Positions 12,026 to 31,800 of a stretch of DNA of 37,229 nucleotides are shown piece after piece (position 1 is the stretch's first letter; the number at the start of each line of letters is the position of its first letter). Where the stretch lies: the IMG/VR virus record IMGVR_UViG_3300005573_000182, positions 1-37,229 of that record, one strand, 5' to 3'. The position numbers and the translations under genes are program-made. The notes below the pieces were generated by a model. The model did not search any database and had not been told where the DNA came from. It was given only the letters and a program-made list of their open reading frames with translations. This stretch comes from a virus. Taxonomy: Duplodnaviria; Caudoviricetes.

Positions 12026-15000
12026 ATGAACAATAAAAATTTTACAGAGTTGTTAGAACAAGATTTTAATGCTAACAAACGTGTTTGGATAGATTTTAAA
12101 GAAATAGATCCTGCTTTTGAACTACAAGCATACAATTTTTTTTTAAGCAAACTACAAGAATACCAACCTGAAAACACATCTGATTTTATACAAGAATGGG
12201 TTAAAGCAAAAAAAGAGAAAAAAAAGTTTTATGTTGATTGGGGCTTATTTAAACAAGCACAACCACAAGCACCACAAGTATCTCTTGCTACTATCCTACA
12301 ACCTGTATTAAAACCTGTAGAACAAACAAAACCTAAAGAAGTCCCGTTAAAACAAGCCATAGACCCGTCAAAATACGAAGTCGCTGTTTCTAACAAGACA
12401 ACTACAACCTTGATACAACCTTCACACTTACCTGCACAAGTTCCTTCTGTCCAAGTTATACAAACACAAGTCACGCCTGAAAAACAAAAAGAGTTAATAT
12501 CGTATGTAAACAATTTGTTTGAAGCGTTAGTAGATGCTGAAAAGTTGTATAAAAATCCAAAAAGTTGGCAAGATATAGAGATAAAACCTACACAGAACTT
12601 ACCAACTGTTGAAGATTTAGAACAAGCAAGGAAGACACAAGAGTTAGCAAGTCGTATGAGCAGATTTTTAACAGAAGTTAGGAAAAAGAAGTTGACACCA
12701 AGAGAAGAAGAATATGTTAGGACACTTGTTGGATTATATAATAAAGAAAAGTTACAGACAGCGTTAAGCAAGATAGAAAATTTTGCTATAAATAGTGTTA
12801 CTGAAGTGTATACAAACGAGTTAGGCAGGGTTGAACAAGAGATAGGCAGGTTACAACAAGAAATAGACAAGTTGAAACAAGAGAAACCGAAGACGATTGC
12901 TGAAAATTTAGGGTTACAACGTGAATTAGCGGAGAAAGAGTTAGCATTAAGAAATCTTAAGATGGCACGTGTAGGGATAAGTAATTATATACAATCTTTG
13001 AAGTCGCCTGATGCGGTTAAAGAGTTTTGGCAAGGTGTTTTTGACGCTTTAGTTCGTGATTATCATAGTTTACCATTTTTAGGTTCTTTGATGTCAGCAG
13101 AAGATAAAGAACGGCTGATACAGATTAGGACAAAAATGCGTGAAGGTAAACCATTAAGTGAAGGTGAACGAGCGTTTGTAGATATGATGGAAACAAAATA
13201 TTTACCAAGAACAAATCTTGCTTACCAAATTGGATATTCAATAAGTGCTATGCCAAAATGGGGGATAGAGTTTGCTGTTGTTAATGCTCTTTTACCAGAA
13301 AAAGGATTGATATATAGAACATTACGAGGTGTTGATGTTCCTGTTATGATTTCAAGGTTAGCAGAATATATAACAAGAGGTGTAATGGCAGGTGCTGTAA
13401 ATGTTCCTATGTTGGCTGATAGGACATACGAATATATGTTGAACCCAGCAGTTCGTGGTGTGTTAGGAGACAAACTTGTGAACTTGTTAGATAATAAAGA
13501 TGTAGATTTTTGGACTGCGTTAAAGAAGTCGTATGCGAACAATGTTGTAGAGTTTGCTACAGAATATATGGGCGTGTTTGTTACAAGACCTTATGATATA
13601 CTTAAAAAATTGTTTATTAGCAAGTATTTAAACAAGTTAGGTATAAAATCGTTTGATAAAGCGTGGGCTAACATAATGAAGTTAACTGGTTGGCACGGAA
13701 TATTAGGTGAAGTGTGGGAAGAAGAAATAGCAGAAGTTTTTAATGCTTTAACTGAAGGACGGGAATACAAGCCGTTGTGGACACAAGAAGGTGCGTTGCG
13801 TGGGTTAATAGAGTTTGCTACAATAGGGTTGTATGGCGGGCTAACTGTTGGGTTACCGAACTTGCCTACGATATTGGAGAATATTAAAAAGATAAAAGAG
13901 TTTAGGACAAGAGAAGGTGTAGCGGTTATAGATGTTGACAAACCTGCGTTTAAATATTGGGTTGAATATATGGAAGAACACGCAAGACGATTACAAGAAC
14001 GTGCGTTACCACAACCGCCTGTTGCTACACCTACAACATTTCCGTCTGTTGAAACACCTATTACTACACCAGCACCTGCTATAAAAGAAATACTTGCTTT
14101 ACCACAAGAAATACCTATCGTAACACCACCGCCTCCAGTTGAGAAACCTTTAGAAATACCACTAACACCTACAACAAACTTGCTTATTTTACCTGGTTCA
14201 GCAGAATTGCCACAATACCCGTCAGTTGTAGAAATTGTTAAAAAACCTATAGAACAGGTTAACAAACAAATTAACAAGATTAAAAACCTTTCTCAAGAAC
14301 AAGTTGTAGAACTTGTTAAAAACATCAATGGTCAGACATCTCTTGTATTCTTAAATTTAGACCAAATAGAGATAGATCCACAATTACAAAAAGAGTTGAG
14401 AAAAGAAGTTACGATTTATCCTGAAACTATTAACCAAATAGTTAAGTATTTCCATCCATCTTTATTCCAAACTTTGAGTGTAGCGTATATTGAAGATGAA
14501 GGTAAGTATGTGTTATTAGATGGACACCATAGGTTTTTAGCATTACAAACTTTAGAAAAAGAAGGGCGGTTAAAAGATTTTTATTCTAACGGCGTTCCTG
14601 TTACATTAACAAAAGTTAAGAACTATGCTGAATTAGGACAACTTATGGGTGTAGTAGTAGGGTTAAATACAGCAAGAAACTTGCCTACGATAACAGAAAT
14701 GGCTTATTTAATTGACAAGTTGTTAAAGAGCGGTGCTACGATACAAGAAGTTAGTGCAAGGACAAATATTGGTGAAACAGAAATAGACAAATATTTAAAC
14801 TTGCTCTTGTTATCTCCACAATGGCAAGAATTACCTAAAAATATTGAAAGTTTACCTACAAAAACTTTGCGGAACAGGGTTAACGACCTGTTGTTCACAA
14901 TGGGTGAACTTGCCAGAAAATACAATATACCATACGAAGTTCAAAACGATATTTTATCTAACTTGGTGATAAAACAAAAAATTGGTGCTGTAGGGTTAGA

Positions 15001-18000
15001 AAATATTATTAGAAACTTGTATGAAACTTATGCGTCGTCGTTGACTGAAGAACAAGTGGAACAAACTCTTAATTTATTCTCGCCTGAACAATGGAAAACA
15101 ATAAGGTCTACAGCAACTGAAACTTTGGTAAAACTTGAAAAAGAACATAGACAATTAAAAAGGTTGTTAAACAAGTATGAAAGTGTTAAAAAAGATTTAC
15201 AATCAGCAATAGAACGTGGTGAGTTAGGTGGTGAATATCAAGCGTTGTTAAAAGGTCTTGAAACAAGGATAAATTCGTTAACAAAACAAATCGTGGATAA
15301 ACAAGTAATGTTAATACAAAGTTGGCGTGATGATTTAACACCTGAACAAATAGAAAATTTTAGAAAAGAGTTTGAAGCAAAATTGAAACAAAACAAGTTT
15401 GTAGTGCGAGAAGATTTTTTATATGTGTTTGATAGTTTGTATGACGAGAAATTAAGACGACAACGCACTTTGTCCTTGTTCCCTGAAGAACCTGTAGATC
15501 CAAAAACAGGGTTCAAATTTACTGATTTTAGAGATTTCCCAACCTGGTATCGTATTGTAGAAGAAGATGACGGAACATTGAAAGTTGTTGATGGTGGTAA
15601 AGGGACACCAAGAGATAATGTTGTATACTTCGTAGCATTAGCAAAAAATTTTGAAGGTGTAATAGGTATTGAAGCAAAAAATGTTGATGAAGCCGTGTAT
15701 TATCTTACAGAATATTTTGATATTACGCCTGAAGATAGGTTTGTAGTAATAGGTTTTGAAGATGGCAAAGTTAAAGTTCATCCAAAAGTTTATTCTCAAT
15801 ACTCTTCTATCCAAATACGAGACCAAGATAAAAAAGCAATTGAAAAATATATATACCAAATTGTTCGTCCTGAAATAAAAATTGAGTATATTACGCCTGG
15901 TGGTAAAACAGAACAATTAAGGTTGTTTGATAATATGATGAATGAAGAACAAATAACAAAAGAAGAATGGGAAGAAATGAAAAGAGTCATAGAAGAAGGT
16001 GTTATTAGAAAAGCATCTTTGTTGCCGTATATGGATATAGAAAACAAACCTTTAAATGAACAAACATTGAAACAGATTGTTGAAAGTTTGAAACAATTTC
16101 TGCCAAAAAGAGAAATTAGTTTAATGGTGTTTTTAGACAAAGATAATAAAATTGTAGATATAATAACAATGTCAGGAGTAGGTTTTAGATATTATTATTA
16201 TAATGCTGTTGATTTTATATTAAATCGTAGTAATATGCATCGGTTAATCAAAAAAGGTGTTGTGAAAATGGTTTTTGGTCATAGACATCCTTCGTTGTTA
16301 GTTACAGAATTTGTAGAATGGGTTAAACAAAATAAACCAGAAATTTATGAAAAAGCGTTAGAAATTAAAGAGTTGTTAAACAAAGATGAGCAAGAAGCAA
16401 TAAAACGTTTTAGTCAATATTTGCCACCAAAAGTCGTTAGTGACGAGGATTTGCGTTTTATTCTCTTTATTAAAGAGAAGTTAGATAAATTTACACAACA
16501 ACAAATAGTACTGGATGATATGACTTTTATTTTTGATGATATAACTTTTGTTTGGTCTCTTAATCAGGGTAAAGTTATAAATATGCTACCAACACCGAAA
16601 AATATTGTTTCAGATGAAATTTTACAAGAAATTTATAAAAATACAACTTTTATAAACGAACCTTTTTCAACAGAAAAATTTTCTATTTTAGCACAAGTAA
16701 ATTTTTTACCAATGGTTTTAGTGTTAGATAAAGATGGAAAAATAAACGATTGGTGTTTTATACATCACAACACTAATTTGTATGAGTTTGTTATTGGTAA
16801 AGCCAATTACACTTTAGTTGTAACCGCTCCTATTGACCTCCCTCATATTACATCTGCTGTAAAAACTCTACAACGACTTGGGTGGAATATTCAATATTTC
16901 TATGTAGAAAAAGGTAAGATACGGGCAAACTTAACTGCTGAACCTAATTTAGAAAATGTTTATGAAAATTTTGATAACAAGGTATACAAGAGGTTGATAC
17001 AGGATTTTGGCAAGAAACTTGTTGACGAGACAGCGGATTATTTTTATCAGAAGTATGGTATAGAAGTTTTTAATATTAGCAAGGACGAATCACAAGATTT
17101 TAGGCAGTTTTTAAGATGGTATAAACTACAACCTACGGCGGAACGCAAAAGGCAGTTAGCAGAGAAGTGGGTTAATAGCGAGATAAATTTCAAGAATATA
17201 GAAGCAAGGTTGAAGTCGTATTTAAACAGGGCGACGATGAAACAATTACAAGAGTTTGTAAGATATTTGATAGCGATAGACAAGGTGAATAATAGTGGTG
17301 TGTATGAAATGTTATTACGAGATTACGGAATTTCTGACTATAAGCAGTTAGGGTTCAAAGATTTAATGAAGTTTGTTCGTGAGTTTAGCAGGATTATTTC
17401 GTTAGATATGTTTAGAGAGACGAAGAAGTTAGAAGAAATAGCGGAAATACAAGAGACGAGCCGTTCAGAACGGCTTGCGTTAGGGTTGAGCAGTTGGATG
17501 CCGTATGATGCTATATTTAACAAGTTAGGTAAAAGATTTCCTGCTGTGAGACGGCTTGCTGACTTGTATCGTATATATATGGGCGAACGGGATAGGATGA
17601 TAGGTGCGTTTATGATTAGATTAAATAATATTTTAAATTATCTTGGTCGTGATTTTGTAAAGAACAAGTTTGACAAGTTTGTAGATTTTGTTGAGACAGG
17701 AACTCCGCCGTCAGGTGTTACAGAAGAAGAATTTTTTAAGATGATGACAGCAAGAGAGAGGTTTCAAGAGTTAACAGATGAGATATGGACTTATGTAAAG
17801 AATTGCGGTGTTTTAATGCACTCGCCTGTTGATGGTTTGTTAGAAGAATTTGACTATAGACAAAATTATTTTCCACATTTTTATCCTGAAGAATTTTGGG
17901 ACGAGAAAAATAAAGAAAATGTTATTAAGTTGTTAATGGAACACAACAACATAGGACGAGAACACGCAGAAAGGTTGTATGGTATAATGCGTGAAGATTT

Positions 18001-19564
18001 TAAGTCAAGAGAGTTTGGTAAAATAGAGAGACACAGGGAGACAAACTTGCCTGGTTATGAGAAAACGCCTGAAGCGTTTACAAGGTATATATATCGTGCG
18101 GTAACAAGAGCATCTTGGGTAAAATATTTTGGTAACGATATATTTATTTTAGGTTATGGTTATATGCCGAAGCAGTTGTATGAAAATTTGGTTAAAATAG
18201 ATAATCCGACAATACGGCGTTATGTTAAAGATGCGTTCAACAACTTGTTAGGTAAAACACGAGATTTAGGTGAGGAAGAACTTATAGGCGGTATTTTACG
18301 AACTATTAGACAACTTGAGACGTTTAAACTTTCGTTAGCGTCAATAGACAACTTGTGGCAATGGTTTGTTAACTTATCACCTATTGTAGGTTGGGACAAT
18401 CTAACACACGCTTTAATACAAAGATTACAAAATGTTGGTAGGTCAAAAGAAATACTTGCGTTATATGGTGTTGGTGAACAATTAGCAAGAACAATGCGTA
18501 TTATGTATCATACACAAGGACGAACTTGGCTTGATAAACTTACTGATTTACATTTAAACCTTACATTGTTTATCCCAACAGAACGAAACAACAGAGTTAT
18601 AGCAGTATATTCAGGTAGTAATTTTGTTGACACTCTTAACAGTTGGTTGAAAAAAGGACAAAAAGATAAAGTGCGGTATGAATTAGAATTGTTAGAAATG
18701 CCAAAAGATACTATTGACAGAATTATTAAACGAGGGTTTATCACGCCTGAAGAAACAATGATGCTTATTTGGAACTTAAACGTCTTGACAAACTTTTCTG
18801 CTGATTTATGGTTTATGCCAAAAATTATGGGTTCTACAGAATTAGGACGGACAATATTTCAGTTTGTAGGAACATTTTACGCACAACAAACACGATACAT
18901 CACACGTTTTATTATAAAACCTTTCTATGATTGGATTAGGACAGGCGGTAAACAAGGTAGTATACAACCTTTGATAAACTTTTTAGTTGCGATGTCTATC
19001 GCAGGCGTTGTTTCATCACAATTACGAGATTTCTTACGCAAGAGACGTCCTTTACCACCAGGCACTATACCTGATTTTGAAAAAGCAGTTGCTAATTATA
19101 TCCAGTTCTTAATAATGAGCGGATGGATAGGTTTCTATTCGTTCCCGTTCTTGTATCATTTCTACGGCACAGATCCTATGCGAGACAGGTTCATCGGTGT
19201 TGGTTTATACGACATCCTCTTGTTGTTGAAAGATATTCAATTATACAATTTTGACGAATTGATTAGGACAAGGTCGCCACTTTTAGATGTAATTTTTACT
19301 TGGGTCAAGAATACACCTGATTATAAATATCCTATTACATACTTGCGGGCAAGACGGCTCTTGTATCAACTACAACGGACATACGATTTAATACGGCACA
19401 GAAATCCGCAGTATGGTGAAAAGTTTTACAAGGAAGTTTATTTACCATATTGGCAAAATTTTGTTAAAAAATATTCAAAAGTATATTTCATTGATACAGG
19501 CACTACAACACCTTTAAGATTACCAGCACCATCTTGGGATGATATGGTTCGTCCAAAGGAGTAA
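12026..19564 (+). CDS. Giant polyvalent internal virion protein with ParB (N-domain + HTH) and JAB/RadC-like domains
   Basis: 2512 aa; YVLLDGHHRFLAL plus HTH (~14340-14830); REISLMVFLDKDN...GHRHPS...SDED (~16090-16460); last gene of the ejection block. Confidence 0.75.
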   Translation: MNNKNFTELLEQDFNANKRVWIDFKEIDPAFELQAYNFFLSKLQEYQPENTSDFIQEWVKAKKEKKKFYVDWGLFKQAQPQAPQVSLATILQPVLKPVEQTKPKEVPLKQAIDPSKYEVAVSNKTTTTLIQPSHLPAQVPSVQVIQTQVTPEKQKELISYVNNLFEALVDAEKLYKNPKSWQDIEIKPTQNLPTVEDLEQARKTQELASRMSRFLTEVRKKKLTPREEEYVRTLVGLYNKEKLQTALSKIENFAINSVTEVYTNELGRVEQEIGRLQQEIDKLKQEKPKTIAENLGLQRELAEKELALRNLKMARVGISNYIQSLKSPDAVKEFWQGVFDALVRDYHSLPFLGSLMSAEDKERLIQIRTKMREGKPLSEGERAFVDMMETKYLPRTNLAYQIGYSISAMPKWGIEFAVVNALLPEKGLIYRTLRGVDVPVMISRLAEYITRGVMAGAVNVPMLADRTYEYMLNPAVRGVLGDKLVNLLDNKDVDFWTALKKSYANNVVEFATEYMGVFVTRPYDILKKLFISKYLNKLGIKSFDKAWANIMKLTGWHGILGEVWEEEIAEVFNALTEGREYKPLWTQEGALRGLIEFATIGLYGGLTVGLPNLPTILENIKKIKEFRTREGVAVIDVDKPAFKYWVEYMEEHARRLQERALPQPPVATPTTFPSVETPITTPAPAIKEILALPQEIPIVTPPPPVEKPLEIPLTPTTNLLILPGSAELPQYPSVVEIVKKPIEQVNKQINKIKNLSQEQVVELVKNINGQTSLVFLNLDQIEIDPQLQKELRKEVTIYPETINQIVKYFHPSLFQTLSVAYIEDEGKYVLLDGHHRFLALQTLEKEGRLKDFYSNGVPVTLTKVKNYAELGQLMGVVVGLNTARNLPTITEMAYLIDKLLKSGATIQEVSARTNIGETEIDKYLNLLLLSPQWQELPKNIESLPTKTLRNRVNDLLFTMGELARKYNIPYEVQNDILSNLVIKQKIGAVGLENIIRNLYETYASSLTEEQVEQTLNLFSPEQWKTIRSTATETLVKLEKEHRQLKRLLNKYESVKKDLQSAIERGELGGEYQALLKGLETRINSLTKQIVDKQVMLIQSWRDDLTPEQIENFRKEFEAKLKQNKFVVREDFLYVFDSLYDEKLRRQRTLSLFPEEPVDPKTGFKFTDFRDFPTWYRIVEEDDGTLKVVDGGKGTPRDNVVYFVALAKNFEGVIGIEAKNVDEAVYYLTEYFDITPEDRFVVIGFEDGKVKVHPKVYSQYSSIQIRDQDKKAIEKYIYQIVRPEIKIEYITPGGKTEQLRLFDNMMNEEQITKEEWEEMKRVIEEGVIRKASLLPYMDIENKPLNEQTLKQIVESLKQFLPKREISLMVFLDKDNKIVDIITMSGVGFRYYYYNAVDFILNRSNMHRLIKKGVVKMVFGHRHPSLLVTEFVEWVKQNKPEIYEKALEIKELLNKDEQEAIKRFSQYLPPKVVSDEDLRFILFIKEKLDKFTQQQIVLDDMTFIFDDITFVWSLNQGKVINMLPTPKNIVSDEILQEIYKNTTFINEPFSTEKFSILAQVNFLPMVLVLDKDGKINDWCFIHHNTNLYEFVIGKANYTLVVTAPIDLPHITSAVKTLQRLGWNIQYFYVEKGKIRANLTAEPNLENVYENFDNKVYKRLIQDFGKKLVDETADYFYQKYGIEVFNISKDESQDFRQFLRWYKLQPTAERKRQLAEKWVNSEINFKNIEARLKSYLNRATMKQLQEFVRYLIAIDKVNNSGVYEMLLRDYGISDYKQLGFKDLMKFVREFSRIISLDMFRETKKLEEIAEIQETSRSERLALGLSSWMPYDAIFNKLGKRFPAVRRLADLYRIYMGERDRMIGAFMIRLNNILNYLGRDFVKNKFDKFVDFVETGTPPSGVTEEEFFKMMTARERFQELTDEIWTYVKNCGVLMHSPVDGLLEEFDYRQNYFPHFYPEEFWDEKNKENVIKLLMEHNNIGREHAERLYGIMREDFKSREFGKIERHRETNLPGYEKTPEAFTRYIYRAVTRASWVKYFGNDIFILGYGYMPKQLYENLVKIDNPTIRRYVKDAFNNLLGKTRDLGEEELIGGILRTIRQLETFKLSLASIDNLWQWFVNLSPIVGWDNLTHALIQRLQNVGRSKEILALYGVGEQLARTMRIMYHTQGRTWLDKLTDLHLNLTLFIPTERNNRVIAVYSGSNFVDTLNSWLKKGQKDKVRYELELLEMPKDTIDRIIKRGFITPEETMMLIWNLNVLTNFSADLWFMPKIMGSTELGRTIFQFVGTFYAQQTRYITRFIIKPFYDWIRTGGKQGSIQPLINFLVAMSIAGVVSSQLRDFLRKRRPLPPGTIPDFEKAVANYIQFLIMSGWIGFYSFPFLYHFYGTDPMRDRFIGVGLYDILLLLKDIQLYNFDELIRTRSPLLDVIFTWVKNTPDYKYPITYLRARRLLYQLQRTYDLIRHRNPQYGEKFYKEVYLPYWQNFVKKYSKVYFIDTGTTTPLRLPAPSWDDMVRPKE

Positions 19565-27743: not shown

Positions 27744-28145
27744 TTATAATTGATTTTTCGTCTTGGTGTAGTCGGATAGTTTGACGGGTAGGGTGGAACG
27801 AGAGGTGGTGTAGTCAGGGTTAAGTTTATAGATTATGAAGCAAGAGTTTTGTTTTGAGTATTGCCAGAGAGCGACGTCGGTGGTTTGTAGGTTGAATGGT
27901 TGTGATGTAAGTGTTTGTAATTTTTGTTTGATATTTGAGGAACAAGTTACTTGTATGAAGTAAGGTTTTTTGTTAGGGTGGATAGCGACGATGTCGCATC
28001 CGTGTATATCAGCTCCTATGAGGACAAGACGACCTTTGATGTATAGAGGTTTCCATTGAGCACGGCAGGTGGTGTAACCTTGTTCTTCAAGTATCTTACA
28101 TACAACACGTTCGTAGTAGATCCCTTTCTGCCTCGTATTCTTCAT
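27744..28145 (-). CDS. Holliday junction resolvase, Hjc-type PD-(D/E)XK
   Basis: KGIYYERVVCKILEEQGY...DIVAI...FIQVT. Confidence 0.75.
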   Translation of the reverse strand: MKNTRQKGIYYERVVCKILEEQGYTTCRAQWKPLYIKGRLVLIGADIHGCDIVAIHPNKKPYFIQVTCSSNIKQKLQTLTSQPFNLQTTDVALWQYSKQNSCFIIYKLNPDYTTSRSTLPVKLSDYTKTKNQL

Positions 28146-29233
28146 TAGTGTCCCTTTATTATTTCGCTTATATGTCTGAAGCCGTTAGAGATGTATCCTG
28201 TTCGTGGTAAATCTTGATTTTTCGTATCTTTTTCATCATAACTTAAAGTATCACTTGAAATTTCTTGTTGCTGTTGTTTTACTTGTTGTTTTTCAATTAA
28301 ATGTTCGTAGTAGTTATAATCGTTTTGTTTGTATTGTATGATACACTGGGACATTTTGCGGTGGAAGTCACGTATAGTAGGGTTAACATCCTTGTTATGT
28401 TTAATATCGTATTCAACGAGTGTGAAATAACAATCTATGAGCCGTTTAAACAATCTCGTTGTTTTCTCTATATCTTGGTTCTCTTTATAATATCGTTTAT
28501 AATCGTGTTTCAACAAGTCAAACTCTACCTTGAACTCGCAATAATAACCCAAGTCAAAGATATACTTGTAAACTTTGTCAAAATACCGCAACAACTCTCG
28601 CACCGCTTCGTTCACCGCACGCTCGTTCTCGTCGGTAATTTCTTTCTTTTCTTTTTCTTTTAAGCATGATTTTAGATATATTTTAGTTTTCTTTTTCTTT
28701 TCTTTTTTATTAACAAGTTTAACAGGGTTACAAGTAGACAAGTTATTACTTGTATTACTTGTTACTTGCTGGTTATTATTTAAATTAAATAAAATATTAT
28801 ACAGCGAAGTCGCATCAAGAGGCGAAAAAGGTATACTTTTTATACCTTTTTCAGGTTCAAAAGGTATATTTTTTATACCTTTTTGGGTGTCATCAGGTAA
28901 AAAAGGTATACTTTTTATACCTTTTTCAGGTTCAAAAGGTATACTTTTTATACCTTTTTGGGTGTCATCAGGTAAAAAAGGTATACTTTTTATACCTTTT
29001 TGGTCTATATCATATTTAACAAAGAACTCAAGTGTGAATTGTTTTTTGTTTAAGATGCCACGTTTCTTTAATCGTTTTTTAACAAGTTTAGCACCAATGA
29101 TTGACATACCGCACATTTCTGCTATTTCTTTATTTTTCATTTTAGGGTTTAGCAGGAGTATTGCTATGATAATTTTTTCACCTGGACTTAACTCTTTATC
29201 TTTTAACACTTTTTCTGGGATTATTACGTTCAT
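28145..29233 (-). CDS. Replication initiator (lambda O-like layout) with N-terminal HTH
   Basis: LSPGEK...NKEIAEMCGMS...LKKRGIL; internal KGIKSIPF repeats encoded by iterons. Confidence 0.75.
   Translation of the reverse strand: MNVIIPEKVLKDKELSPGEKIIIAILLLNPKMKNKEIAEMCGMSIIGAKLVKKRLKKRGILNKKQFTLEFFVKYDIDQKGIKSIPFLPDDTQKGIKSIPFEPEKGIKSIPFLPDDTQKGIKNIPFEPEKGIKSIPFSPLDATSLYNILFNLNNNQQVTSNTSNNLSTCNPVKLVNKKEKKKKTKIYLKSCLKEKEKKEITDENERAVNEAVRELLRYFDKVYKYIFDLGYYCEFKVEFDLLKHDYKRYYKENQDIEKTTRLFKRLIDCYFTLVEYDIKHNKDVNPTIRDFHRKMSQCIIQYKQNDYNYYEHLIEKQQVKQQQQEISSDTLSYDEKDTKNQDLPRTGYISNGFRHISEIIKGH
28826..29000. repeat. Five palindromic iterons; probable replication origin
   Basis: AAAAGGTATA-N5-TATACCTTTT at 28826, 28859, 28901, 28934 and 28976; AT-rich tract adjacent (28640-28800). 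Confidence 0.85.
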
Positions 29234-29791: not shown

Positions 29792-31186
29792 CTAAAACAA
29801 ACCCAATTGTTTATCTTCTTTAACCGCTCTCAACCTTGCTCTTGCTATCTCTACATATTCTGCTTCTTTTTCTATACCTATAAACCTAAACCCCAACTTC
29901 TTGCACGCTATACAAGTTGTTCCTGAACCTGCAAACGGGTCAAGGACAAGACCGCCAGGTGGTGTTACAAGTTTGACAAGGTATTCAAGTAAACGCAAGG
30001 GTTTCACTGTTGGATGGTTGTTCCTTATCAAGTTGTTTCTTACATTACCTGAACCTGTCAACAACGACTGGTCTTCAGTTCCTTTCATCCCACCACCTTT
30101 CTTTAACGGCAAGTTTTCTAAACCCATATCTCGTTCTTTACGGCTTGCTTTCGCACAATAAAAAAAACGAGAGGCATTTATTCCACTTTGTTTATCTAAC
30201 ATATAACAAACGCATTGGGGGTTAGTATGGATAACCCCCGACTTTATATCATTATAATTACTTGGGGCTTGTGGTTGAATGTTTTTGATAAATCCTTCAA
30301 CTTGATATGTTTTTCCTTTATAAGAATAAGAATAAGGTTTCTTTTCTTCTTTCCTTTCTATCACCTCATCACAAATACACTCTAAAATAACATTGGCAGG
30401 AAACCTTCCCTGTGATGTGTAATAATTCTTGATACTACCTCTGTCAGGTTCACCACCAGCAAAAGTTCCAGCAGGAGCGTGATGTATTACAACTTTCTCT
30501 TGACCAACACGACACGCATCAATGTTTATCCCACCAGTCCCCCATTTCAAAACATTCAACGCAACATTACGTTCACTTAATGGTTTCCTTGCTACAACAA
30601 TTGGTTCATACGCAGGTTTGAGTGCTGTGCCCCACCCTTCCCACTTCTTCGCAATATCTTCTGTAATCTCATATTTTCTTCTCTCTACATTTGTATAATC
30701 TTTAGGTCTATATCCTTGTTCAAAGTTTAACTTATGAAAATACAACGCACCTTTTGAATTATCACCAATGCTGTTCAATGATGCCTTGCCTTCTTTCAAC
30801 AATCTGTCTATACTCTTGGCTATGTTCAACGATTTAGGAAAGCCACTTGAATATAACCATATAATACAATCTCGTATTTCAAACCCCGCATCTTCAATCC
30901 CGCATACCATCCTGTGATAAGTTCTCGTCCCACCAAACGCCAAGAGATACCCGCCTGGTTTCAACACACGCAAAACTTCACTCGCCCACCTCCTTGTCCA
31001 CTCTTGGTATTTCTGTAAATCTGTCCCAAAACTATCCCATTCCTTACCCATAAAAGATAATCCATATGGTTATGGAGGGTCGGTAATTATCGTGTCGACT
31101 GAATTTTCAGGAATCTTCTTCATAACCTGAATACAGTCGCCACAGATAATCCGACCCAAATACTCCTTTATGTTATTTTGTTCCAT
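29792..31186 (-). CDS. N6A/N4C DNA methyltransferase (beta class) interrupted by an in-frame TAA at the DPPY motif
   Basis: AAGGAG SD, ATG 31186, IICGDCIQVMKKIPENSVDTIITDPP*PYGLSFMGKEW...RVLKPGG...HPTVKP...VLDPFAGSGTT; stop at 31072-31070. Confidence 0.85.
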
Positions 31187-31310
31187 AATGTCTCCTTAAA
31201 TGACATTTCAGACATAAAGTTATTAAATTAGATTTATCGTTATTTTGACATTTTTTATATACCTTTTTATAAAACACTTTTTTACATACTGGACAAATAT
31301 GTTTTTCCAT
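31175..31310 (-). pseudogene. Internally deleted HNH endonuclease relic
   Basis: MEKHICPVCKKCF... followed in another frame by NNDKSNLITLCLKCHLRRH, an HNH C-terminal signature. Confidence 0.6.
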
Positions 31311-31317
31311 AAACTAA

Positions 31318-31434
31318 TTACACTATATCTAAATTAAAACTTATTGTATCAATACAATTATCAGGCAAGTTTTTTAGAACCTCAAAACAATCACCTTCTA
31401 TAATCTTGTTAATGTAATCTTCTAACTTGTTCAT
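31318..31434 (-). pseudogene. Truncated second DNA methyltransferase N-terminus
   Basis: GAGGT SD; MNKLEDYINKIIEGDCFEVLKNLPDNCIDTI then SFNLDIV*; similarity ends just before the expected TDPPY. Confidence 0.7.
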
Positions 31435-31435
31435 A

Positions 31436-31591
31436 TTACCTCTTAACACGTTTTCTTAAAATTAAACTTACATACTTGTCTTTACAAGGATAAGAACAAG
31501 TTTTACCGCCTCCATATTTTAACCTGCTTGCTAAAACATAAAATTCTTTACCACAAATTTTACATTTACGTTTTACATACTTGTTTTTCAC
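31436..31591 (-). CDS. 51-aa treble-clef Zn-finger protein (not in ORF track)
   Basis: GTG start; CKICGKEF...TCSYPC. Confidence 0.6.
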   Translation of the reverse strand: MKNKYVKRKCKICGKEFYVLASRLKYGGGKTCSYPCKDKYVSLILRKRVKR

Positions 31592-31793
31592 GTTTTTTAC
31601 TCCAATATTTTTTGATACGTTCTAAAAACGCATTGACATATTTTCTTTTTCTGTAGAGCCAGGACAGGTATGTTTTGAAACAAGAGCGAGAGCAGAGAGG
31701 GACTTTTGCGTAATAGCGGTAGGCGACAAAAGGACGTTGACAGATAAAACATTTATACAATGATTTACCTTTTAAATTCCATTTTCGTTTCAT
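31566..31793 (-). CDS. Treble-clef Zn-finger protein, probably leaderless
   Basis: CFICQRPF...LCSRSC; ATG 7 nt downstream of a -10 box. Confidence 0.6.
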   Translation of the reverse strand: MKRKWNLKGKSLYKCFICQRPFVAYRYYAKVPLCSRSCFKTYLSWLYRKRKYVNAFLERIKKYWSKKREKQVCKT

Positions 31794-31800
31794 TAACAAA

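Follow-up and report, generated by a model that had tools for sequence, protein, structure and literature searches.

A candidate stop-hopping cassette, linked to an HNH endonuclease, in the catalytic motif of phage DNA methyltransferases

The closest described system to the locus reported here is the MobA/gene 60 element of phage T4, which is inserted in the topoisomerase large-subunit gene. In a 37,229-nucleotide (nt) phage sequence (IMG/VR record IMGVR_UViG_3300005573_000182, positions 1 to 37,229; “the window” below means this whole stretch), a cassette lies instead in motif IV, the catalytic DPPY, of a DNA methyltransferase gene (PF01555). We consider it probable, from comparison of sequences, that this HNH-linked cassette interrupts DPPY and that ribosomes hop 5-7 extra nt to make the full enzyme. 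The cassette would work like the T4 element, and in the available text of the description of that element (10.1101/2022.08.31.505936) the layout parallels ours point by point, including nuclease loss and, in two loci, an apparently different HNH; yet the two appear to be separate, and we do not regard the cassette as a member of the T4 family. The gene 60 gap is 50 nt, whereas ours is 5-7 nt; MobA HNH proteins have 269-279 amino acids (aa) and those of the cassette about 180 aa, with their own promoter (a comparison by size only). A tblastn search of GenBank phages with one protein of the cassette's HNH family (P0123) returned 70 records, all below 60% identity and none named Escherichia. Unlike MobA/gene 60, the methyltransferase cassette leaves the 5' piece of its host gene as a stub and supplies the whole N-terminus anew; its take-off residue is Pro across lineages (except one Ala and one Gly), its landing codon is often unmatched, and its one 85-nt stem would stand in for the gene 60 take-off stem-loop and mini-Shine-Dalgarno (SD) sequence.

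Shorter hops have also been described. In synthetic E. coli stop-hops, a single residue is made from 9 nt that include a stop between related codons, as would be the case here; those were constructs with matched codons, whereas the hop of the cassette would be natural, structure-driven and mobile, and natural in-frame stop hopping was not known according to the accessible portion of the same 2016 review (PMC5009743). The terminase bypass of Streptomyces phage Hau3 (PMC10732093) and the byps of Magnusiomyces mitochondria are short non-coding inserts skipped in translation, as proposed for the cassette, and byps tolerate imperfect landing (PMC5009743). Both are triggered by a hungry or unused sense codon, unlike the cassette with its stop, and the available parts of these sources do not mention an HNH link for them (PMC10732093).

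The junction and the cassette around it

The minus strand at 31081-31061 reads D-P-P-stop-P-Y-G. The 38-codon frame upstream of the stop, the open reading frame (ORF) 31070-31186, follows an SD sequence (AGGAG, 31196-31192), and downstream 425 codons remain open to a TAG at 29792, with HPTVKP and DPFAGSG intact; the junction and the lengths of both frames are as an earlier sequence-only reading had stated when it proposed a programmed short hop that rebuilds DPPY. The downstream frame matches Pfam N6_N4_Mtase (PF01555) at E 6e-40. As in other PF01555 beta-class N6-adenine/N4-cytosine methyltransferases, motif IV lies near the N-terminus, ahead of a motif I near the C-terminus; the window gene differs from ordinary members in that motif IV is interrupted between Pro and Tyr. 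The window itself is a 37-kb tailed-phage genome, with terminase, portal and major head protein, and was found in hot-spring runs. Contigs from three runs (X1, X2, X3) cross the junction with no indel and 0 differences, so that the junction stood up to a check of the assembly; all three may be the source of this DNA and so do not count as independent, and a contig can lose rare variants; independent support comes from recurrence in 31 other lineages.

The window taken alone proves little, as a small duplication at a palindrome would yield both matched codons and a hairpin. These were the two signals named by the sequence-only reading, and neither is conserved in the family: the CCA codons that flank the stop in the window are identical in only 2 of 32 lineages, and the local hairpin, which does fold in the window (z -2.8 for the 21-mer), falls to z -0.7 in a 61-nt context and reaches -3 kcal/mol or lower in 14 of 27 lineages, a count made with no control set and partly forced by the codons. 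The hairpin is largely a by-product, because the gap-free Pro-Tyr-Gly codons of the window are already palindromic. The proposal of a hop fared better than its signals, since it gained recurrence, a conserved stop, an RNA structure and an HNH cassette; the reading had overlooked the HNH remnant, the second copy of the N-terminus and the stem that lies upstream.

The D-P-P-stop-P-Y junction is the 3' end of a 274-nt insert, arranged as follows.

31341..31434, minus strand: leftover 5' stub of the original methyltransferase, 31 codons, breaking just before the TDPPY codons; in contigs of runs X5 and X4 it continues into an ordinary DPPY gene
31067..31340, minus strand: inserted cassette of 274 nt (eroded promoter region, HNH remnant, replacement N-terminus, stop and landing codon), absent from the X4 and X5 joints; same layout in L078/L111 and L112
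31311..31340, minus strand: position of a sigma70-like promoter, eroded in the window, where it scores 8/12, no better than shuffles
31173..31310, minus strand: HNH endonuclease remnant, 45 aa, with an in-frame loss of about 135 residues (Pfam HNH, E 3e-4)
31070..31186, minus strand: replacement methyltransferase N-terminus, 38 codons ending in TDPP and then the stop, preceded by an SD at 31192-31196 and overlapping the HNH end in a different frame
31133..31167, minus strand: 5' arm of the stem (core 31157-31151); duplex -32.9 kcal/mol, core pair probabilities 0.96-1.0, covariation
31073..31102, minus strand: 3' arm of the stem over the T-D-P-P codons (core 31083-31077), ending 1 nt before the stop, from folding and duplex energy
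31073..31075, minus strand: putative take-off codon (second Pro), from the sequence
31070..31072, minus strand: in-frame TAA within motif IV; a stop in 32/32 lineages
31067..31069, minus strand: putative landing codon, CCA; in the family CCN 11, CTN 15 and other 6 of 32
29792..31066, minus strand: remainder of the beta-class N6/N4 methyltransferase, catalytic Tyr to stop, 424 codons, from sequence and Pfam

Empty alleles skip the insert: a 12.2-kb contig (X5, depth 25.5) joins 31066 to 31354, and a short contig (X4, depth 2.3) joins 31066 to 31341. In both joints the stub meets the Tyr codon through ordinary TDPP codons, and 31340-31067 is therefore an insert that replaces the TDPP codons and supplies its own. 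Related phages thus have occupied and empty alleles of one site, as homing elements do, and the element encodes an N-terminus that overlaps the HNH out of frame and ends at the putative landing codon, as in MobA/gene 60.

The HNH remnant matches residues 1-22 and 157-181 of a 183-aa protein (P0137) at 95% and 88%. Its family comprises 74 proteins, with members of about 180 aa, several of them fused to methyltransferase stubs; the in-frame fusions (P0128, P0141, P0147, P0148, P0166, P0167, P0171, P0183, P0187) carry stubs of differing length, so the left junction of the element is variable. One locus found by our first pattern scan (L078) has the layout of the window with an intact, 179-aa HNH. 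A sigma70-like site with at least 9/12 matches to consensus is present in 17 of 23 loci; in 19 of 23 the distance from the end of the best site to the HNH start is exactly 6 nt. The nuclease has been lost elsewhere too: L225 retains only an HNH remnant, L237, L262, L374, L376 and L386 have no recognisable HNH of this family upstream, and L264 and L383 have an apparently different HNH (judged by eye).

Recurrence, RNA structure and selection

Following the sequence-only reading, phage methyltransferases were searched for a stop at this point of the motif, and it recurs: an in-frame stop there was found in 32 distinct lineages from two methyltransferase subfamilies, counted after near-duplicates (L124, L146, L153, L226, L381) were dropped. 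The stop is TAA in 16, TAG in 10 and TGA in 6, the fourth base after it is C in 28/32, and the gap is 6 nt in 28, 5 nt in 3 and 7 nt in 1; the flanking codons are identical in 2 and synonymous in 12, with CTN in 15. The set gathered by HNH similarity alone comprised 118 loci (its metagenome part being the best 80 of 351). In 35 of these, all with an identity of at least 45%, motif IV follows directly downstream; it carries an in-frame stop in 27 and is intact in 8. In 3 further loci (L112, L115, L144) a deletion in the methyltransferase spans the site, and 7 loci end at a contig edge. Scans that allowed any codon after DPP gave 18 + 25 = 43 matches, with 2 + 7 in methyltransferases, and all nine of these carry a stop. 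A slow A-site, here a stop, right after take-off is a hallmark of bypassing, and by sequence it is present in 32/32 lineages and 9/9 matches of these unbiased scans. Two narrower searches, TAA-only and the first pattern scan, each yielded 1 genuine case (among 13 and 2 matches).

Ordinary relatives look different. The junction was seen in 0 of 77 viral loci found by ordinary homologs, and among ordinary protein homologs the motif is intact in 114/120, while 3 (P0005, P0029, P0059) start at a Met just past motif IV; P0059 matches the full-length P0030 from that Met on, and the three may be further split alleles or contig-edge fragments. A scan of GTDB genomes gave 16 matches, 0 of them in a methyltransferase, and pointed to no host; no GenBank phage record spans the cassette, and a stem-seed scan covered 22 of 64 parts of the viral DNA. 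No description of this element was found in the literature, in a search whose coverage left out most subscription journals.

A long RNA stem accompanies the stop. The T-D-P(-P) codons pair with a segment that lies about 85 nt upstream, and in 32/32 the distance between the end of this stem and the stop is 0-6 nt. Raw duplex energies are confounded by GC and were replaced by z-scores against shuffles, which fall below -3 in 24/28 stop loci, as against 2/51 ordinary homologs, 1/24 intact genes with a chance GGGTC seed and 0/7 HNH-linked intact genes. In an alignment of 25 rows the pair at the Thr wobble base is G-C in 17, A-U in 4 and U-A in 1, and the covariation score of the stem exceeds 500/500 shuffles. 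In L149, whose stop is displaced downstream by one codon and follows Ala, and in L130, where it is displaced by two and follows Gly, the base of the stem shifts along with the stop. Codon choice follows the stem pairing: GAC is used in 22/22 genes with the stem versus 24/45 ordinary ones, and CCT in 20/22 versus 8/45 (2 of the 22 were found by a GAC pattern). In 29/32 the sense strand forms the more stable fold of the two strands, a difference that strand composition could cause, and RNAalifold recovers only the 6-bp core, as bulges shift the register. Rfam gave 0 matches at gathering score in the window and 0 at E 0.1 in 6 loci, for a group I or II intron or any other curated RNA. Like the known bypass elements, the family has a conserved 5' RNA structure. 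A tRNA-like reading of the stem plus CCA was dropped, the take-off codon being CCA in only 13/28.

The stop appears to be under selection to stay a stop. On a 20-locus tree of the sequence upstream of the junction (length 9.5), parsimony places 6 changes, each from one stop codon to another and never to a sense codon, a pattern that neutral simulation gives at P <=0.00005 at the tree rate and 0.01-0.035 at a quarter of it. The replacement N-terminus is an open frame with a start codon in 32/32 loci and seems to be under purifying selection, much as ordinary genes are, with nonsynonymous and synonymous differences (pN and pS) of 0.27 and 0.69 over 22 lineages, compared with 0.305 and 0.79 in ordinary genes. 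Gaps that break the frame occur in 4/32; beyond them the reading frame continues uninterrupted for 420, >297, >60 and 696 codons. The methyltransferase is complete to motif I in 12/32 and open to the contig edge in 16/32, with 2 further stops in 6,562 downstream codons of 28 lineages.

Stop-hopping and its rivals

The favoured reading would run as follows. The HNH would nick the conserved DPPY-coding DNA of empty alleles, a target proposed solely because of the position of the insert, and the cassette would home in, its extra bases making the occupied allele immune. In translation the ribosome would stall at the stop after Asp-Pro-Pro, in a context poor for termination whose fourth base is C in 28/32; Asp-Pro and Pro-Pro ahead of a stop hinder the release factor, according to the accessible text of PMC3985003. 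The stem would then re-form behind the ribosome, its last pairs, on codons within the stalled ribosome, closing only upon forward movement; for gene 60, the available parts of PMC5009743 and 10.1101/2024.12.09.627546 describe a stem forming behind the ribosome as a proposed driver of such movement. Peptidyl-tRNA-Pro would release, slide 5-7 nt and re-pair loosely (on CCN, or on CUN via a G-U pair), and decoding would restart at the Tyr codon to give, in the window, a 462-aa enzyme. The cassette would outlast decay of the HNH, as in the window. Protection from the nuclease of the element itself would be a likelier reason for the insert than the throttled methylation first suggested for it.

Several observations weigh against a hop of this kind. 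Landing is unmatched in the classical sense (identical in 2/32, synonymous in 12/32), so that matched codons mark the window and not the family, whereas the MobA family always retains them, as far as the accessible text of its description goes (10.1101/2022.08.31.505936). In L145/L146 the landing codon is a second stop, three lineages offer weak matches (ACG, ACA, AGC), and the pyrimidine in the second position of the landing codon does not differ significantly from neutral expectation (P 0.14-0.35 at the tree rate). Only about 7 nt would separate the stem core from the landing site, so that the stem may not close fully at landing; in gene 60 the driver stem ends 26 nt away (10.1101/2024.12.09.627546, available text). 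The control for covariation ignores relatedness, 4 of the 25 alignment rows are out of register and the structure was derived from the same sequences. The 8 HNH-linked loci with an intact motif need no cassette, the methyltransferase is deleted across the site in the three HNH loci named above, an extra in-frame TAG interrupts it in 2/32 (L122, L135), and in 2 more (L125, L153) it ends before motif I, apparently at a second insertion. Intactness of the downstream part is weak evidence, because homing could keep refreshing it.

Motif IV accepts Y, F or W. Programmed readthrough, with Tyr inserted at UAA/UAG or Trp at UGA, would restore DPPY or DPPW plus two extra residues, the stem and the +4 C making the stop leaky; the sequence-only reading had set simple readthrough aside as giving DPPxPY, which overlooked that the residue at the stop itself completes the motif. 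Such readthrough would suit the 28/32 gaps that keep the frame, the C that follows the stop in as many, and the unmatched landing codons, and homologs accept insertions a few residues after DPPY. It could not rescue the 5-nt, 7-nt or double-stop alleles (5/32), it leaves the stem 5' of the stop, where bypass drivers act, and if its product worked, one substitution could turn the stop into Tyr, yet sense codons occur in none of the 32 lineages or 9 any-codon matches. We regard it as unlikely. Genome-wide reassignment of the stop was considered and rejected: 18/26 listed window genes end in TAA, the long frames of TAG/TGA loci contain CAR and TGG codons, and in 5 lineages the HNH frame is itself closed by the stop codon that stands at the junction.

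Quite unlikely, in our view, is a dead but immune allele, in which the element knocks out a dispensable methyltransferase and borrows its downstream frame from a fresh recipient at each homing. The methyltransferase is indeed deleted or broken in at least 5 loci, double-stop and frame-breaking gaps exist, and the element and downstream trees differ in sister pairs (from short, weakly resolved alignments). Selection on the element's own N-terminus, the covarying stem and the exchanges from stop to stop only would all go unexplained, as would the complete genes that keep stem and stop with no recognisable HNH of this family upstream (L237, L262, L374, L376, L386).

A route at the RNA level or elsewhere, whether stem-guided cleavage and ligation that removes the gap or re-initiation that gives a two-piece enzyme, we hold to be very unlikely. 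A strong double-stranded stem does end right at the gap, landing identity is loose and gap length varies; removal of the gap would, however, need no stop, Rfam has no match, we know of no splicing of 5-7 nt in phage mRNA, the first in-frame ATG of the downstream part lies beyond the catalytic Tyr, and a tRNA search of the window found none. A recent inactivating duplication, an excision footprint or an error of assembly confined to this genome, the alternatives first listed, has next to no probability: although in the window alone the gap resembles a near-perfect tandem copy at a palindrome, there are 31 other lineages, mostly without duplication-like gaps, the match is exact in three assemblies and the gap belongs to a 274-nt insert.

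If ribosomes do hop here, the cassette may, more tentatively, be a second, independently evolved and widespread homing-endonuclease bypass, in which the geometry of one upstream stem fixes how far the ribosome hops, landing needs no matched codon and even a stop is usable, and which sits in a catalytic motif and spreads and persists without its nuclease.

Neighbouring elements and biological meaning

The methyltransferase family appears to host several homing elements. An intein-like insert (C...GN before SGFPKS) lies at the YG|SGFPKS site of the same methyltransferases in L122 (about 1730-2550), L135 (from about 1890) and L127/L153, and another frame within the L122 insert encodes an HNH-like stretch. 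In L125 (about 2050-2600) and at the end of L153 the methyltransferase is seemingly split again before HPTxKP by a second zinc-finger ORF, and P0008 ends at a similar place. Past the extra TAGs of L122 and L135 the frame otherwise continues, and homologs have Glu or a similar residue there (an error, a nonsense change or local readthrough). In HNH-linked methyltransferases (L128/L195, L134, L148, L169, L133, L139, L149) DPPY is often replaced by DPPAG, DPPGA or DPPSG, variants seen in none of the 120 top homologs and possibly another escape from the nuclease or a subfamily trait.

Elsewhere in the window, two short Cys-rich ORFs (51 and 77 aa; 31436-31799, minus strand) that precede the stub look like the zinc-binding repeats at the N-termini of HNH proteins, with only a weak DUF4428 match. 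A 362-aa ORF (28145-29233, minus strand), with a helix-turn-helix-like start followed by five KGIKSIPF-like repeats and no PHROG match, is likely a replication initiator, and a 2512-aa ORF (12026-19564, plus strand) lies within the structural module.

In gene calls, genes of this kind come out as two pieces, a 40-aa peptide and an enzyme that lacks the catalytic motif. Natural cases of programmed bypassing are very few; this family would add 32 natural variants of a cassette of about 100 nt, and it makes testable both RNA pairing behind the ribosome as the driver of bypass (a debated model) and the need for codon matching at landing. If the favoured reading is true, the cassette would be a selfish mobile element that carries a short translational bypass, something rarely met in nature, and homing endonucleases would have reached recoding more than once, sitting in conserved active-site DNA without an intron or intein.
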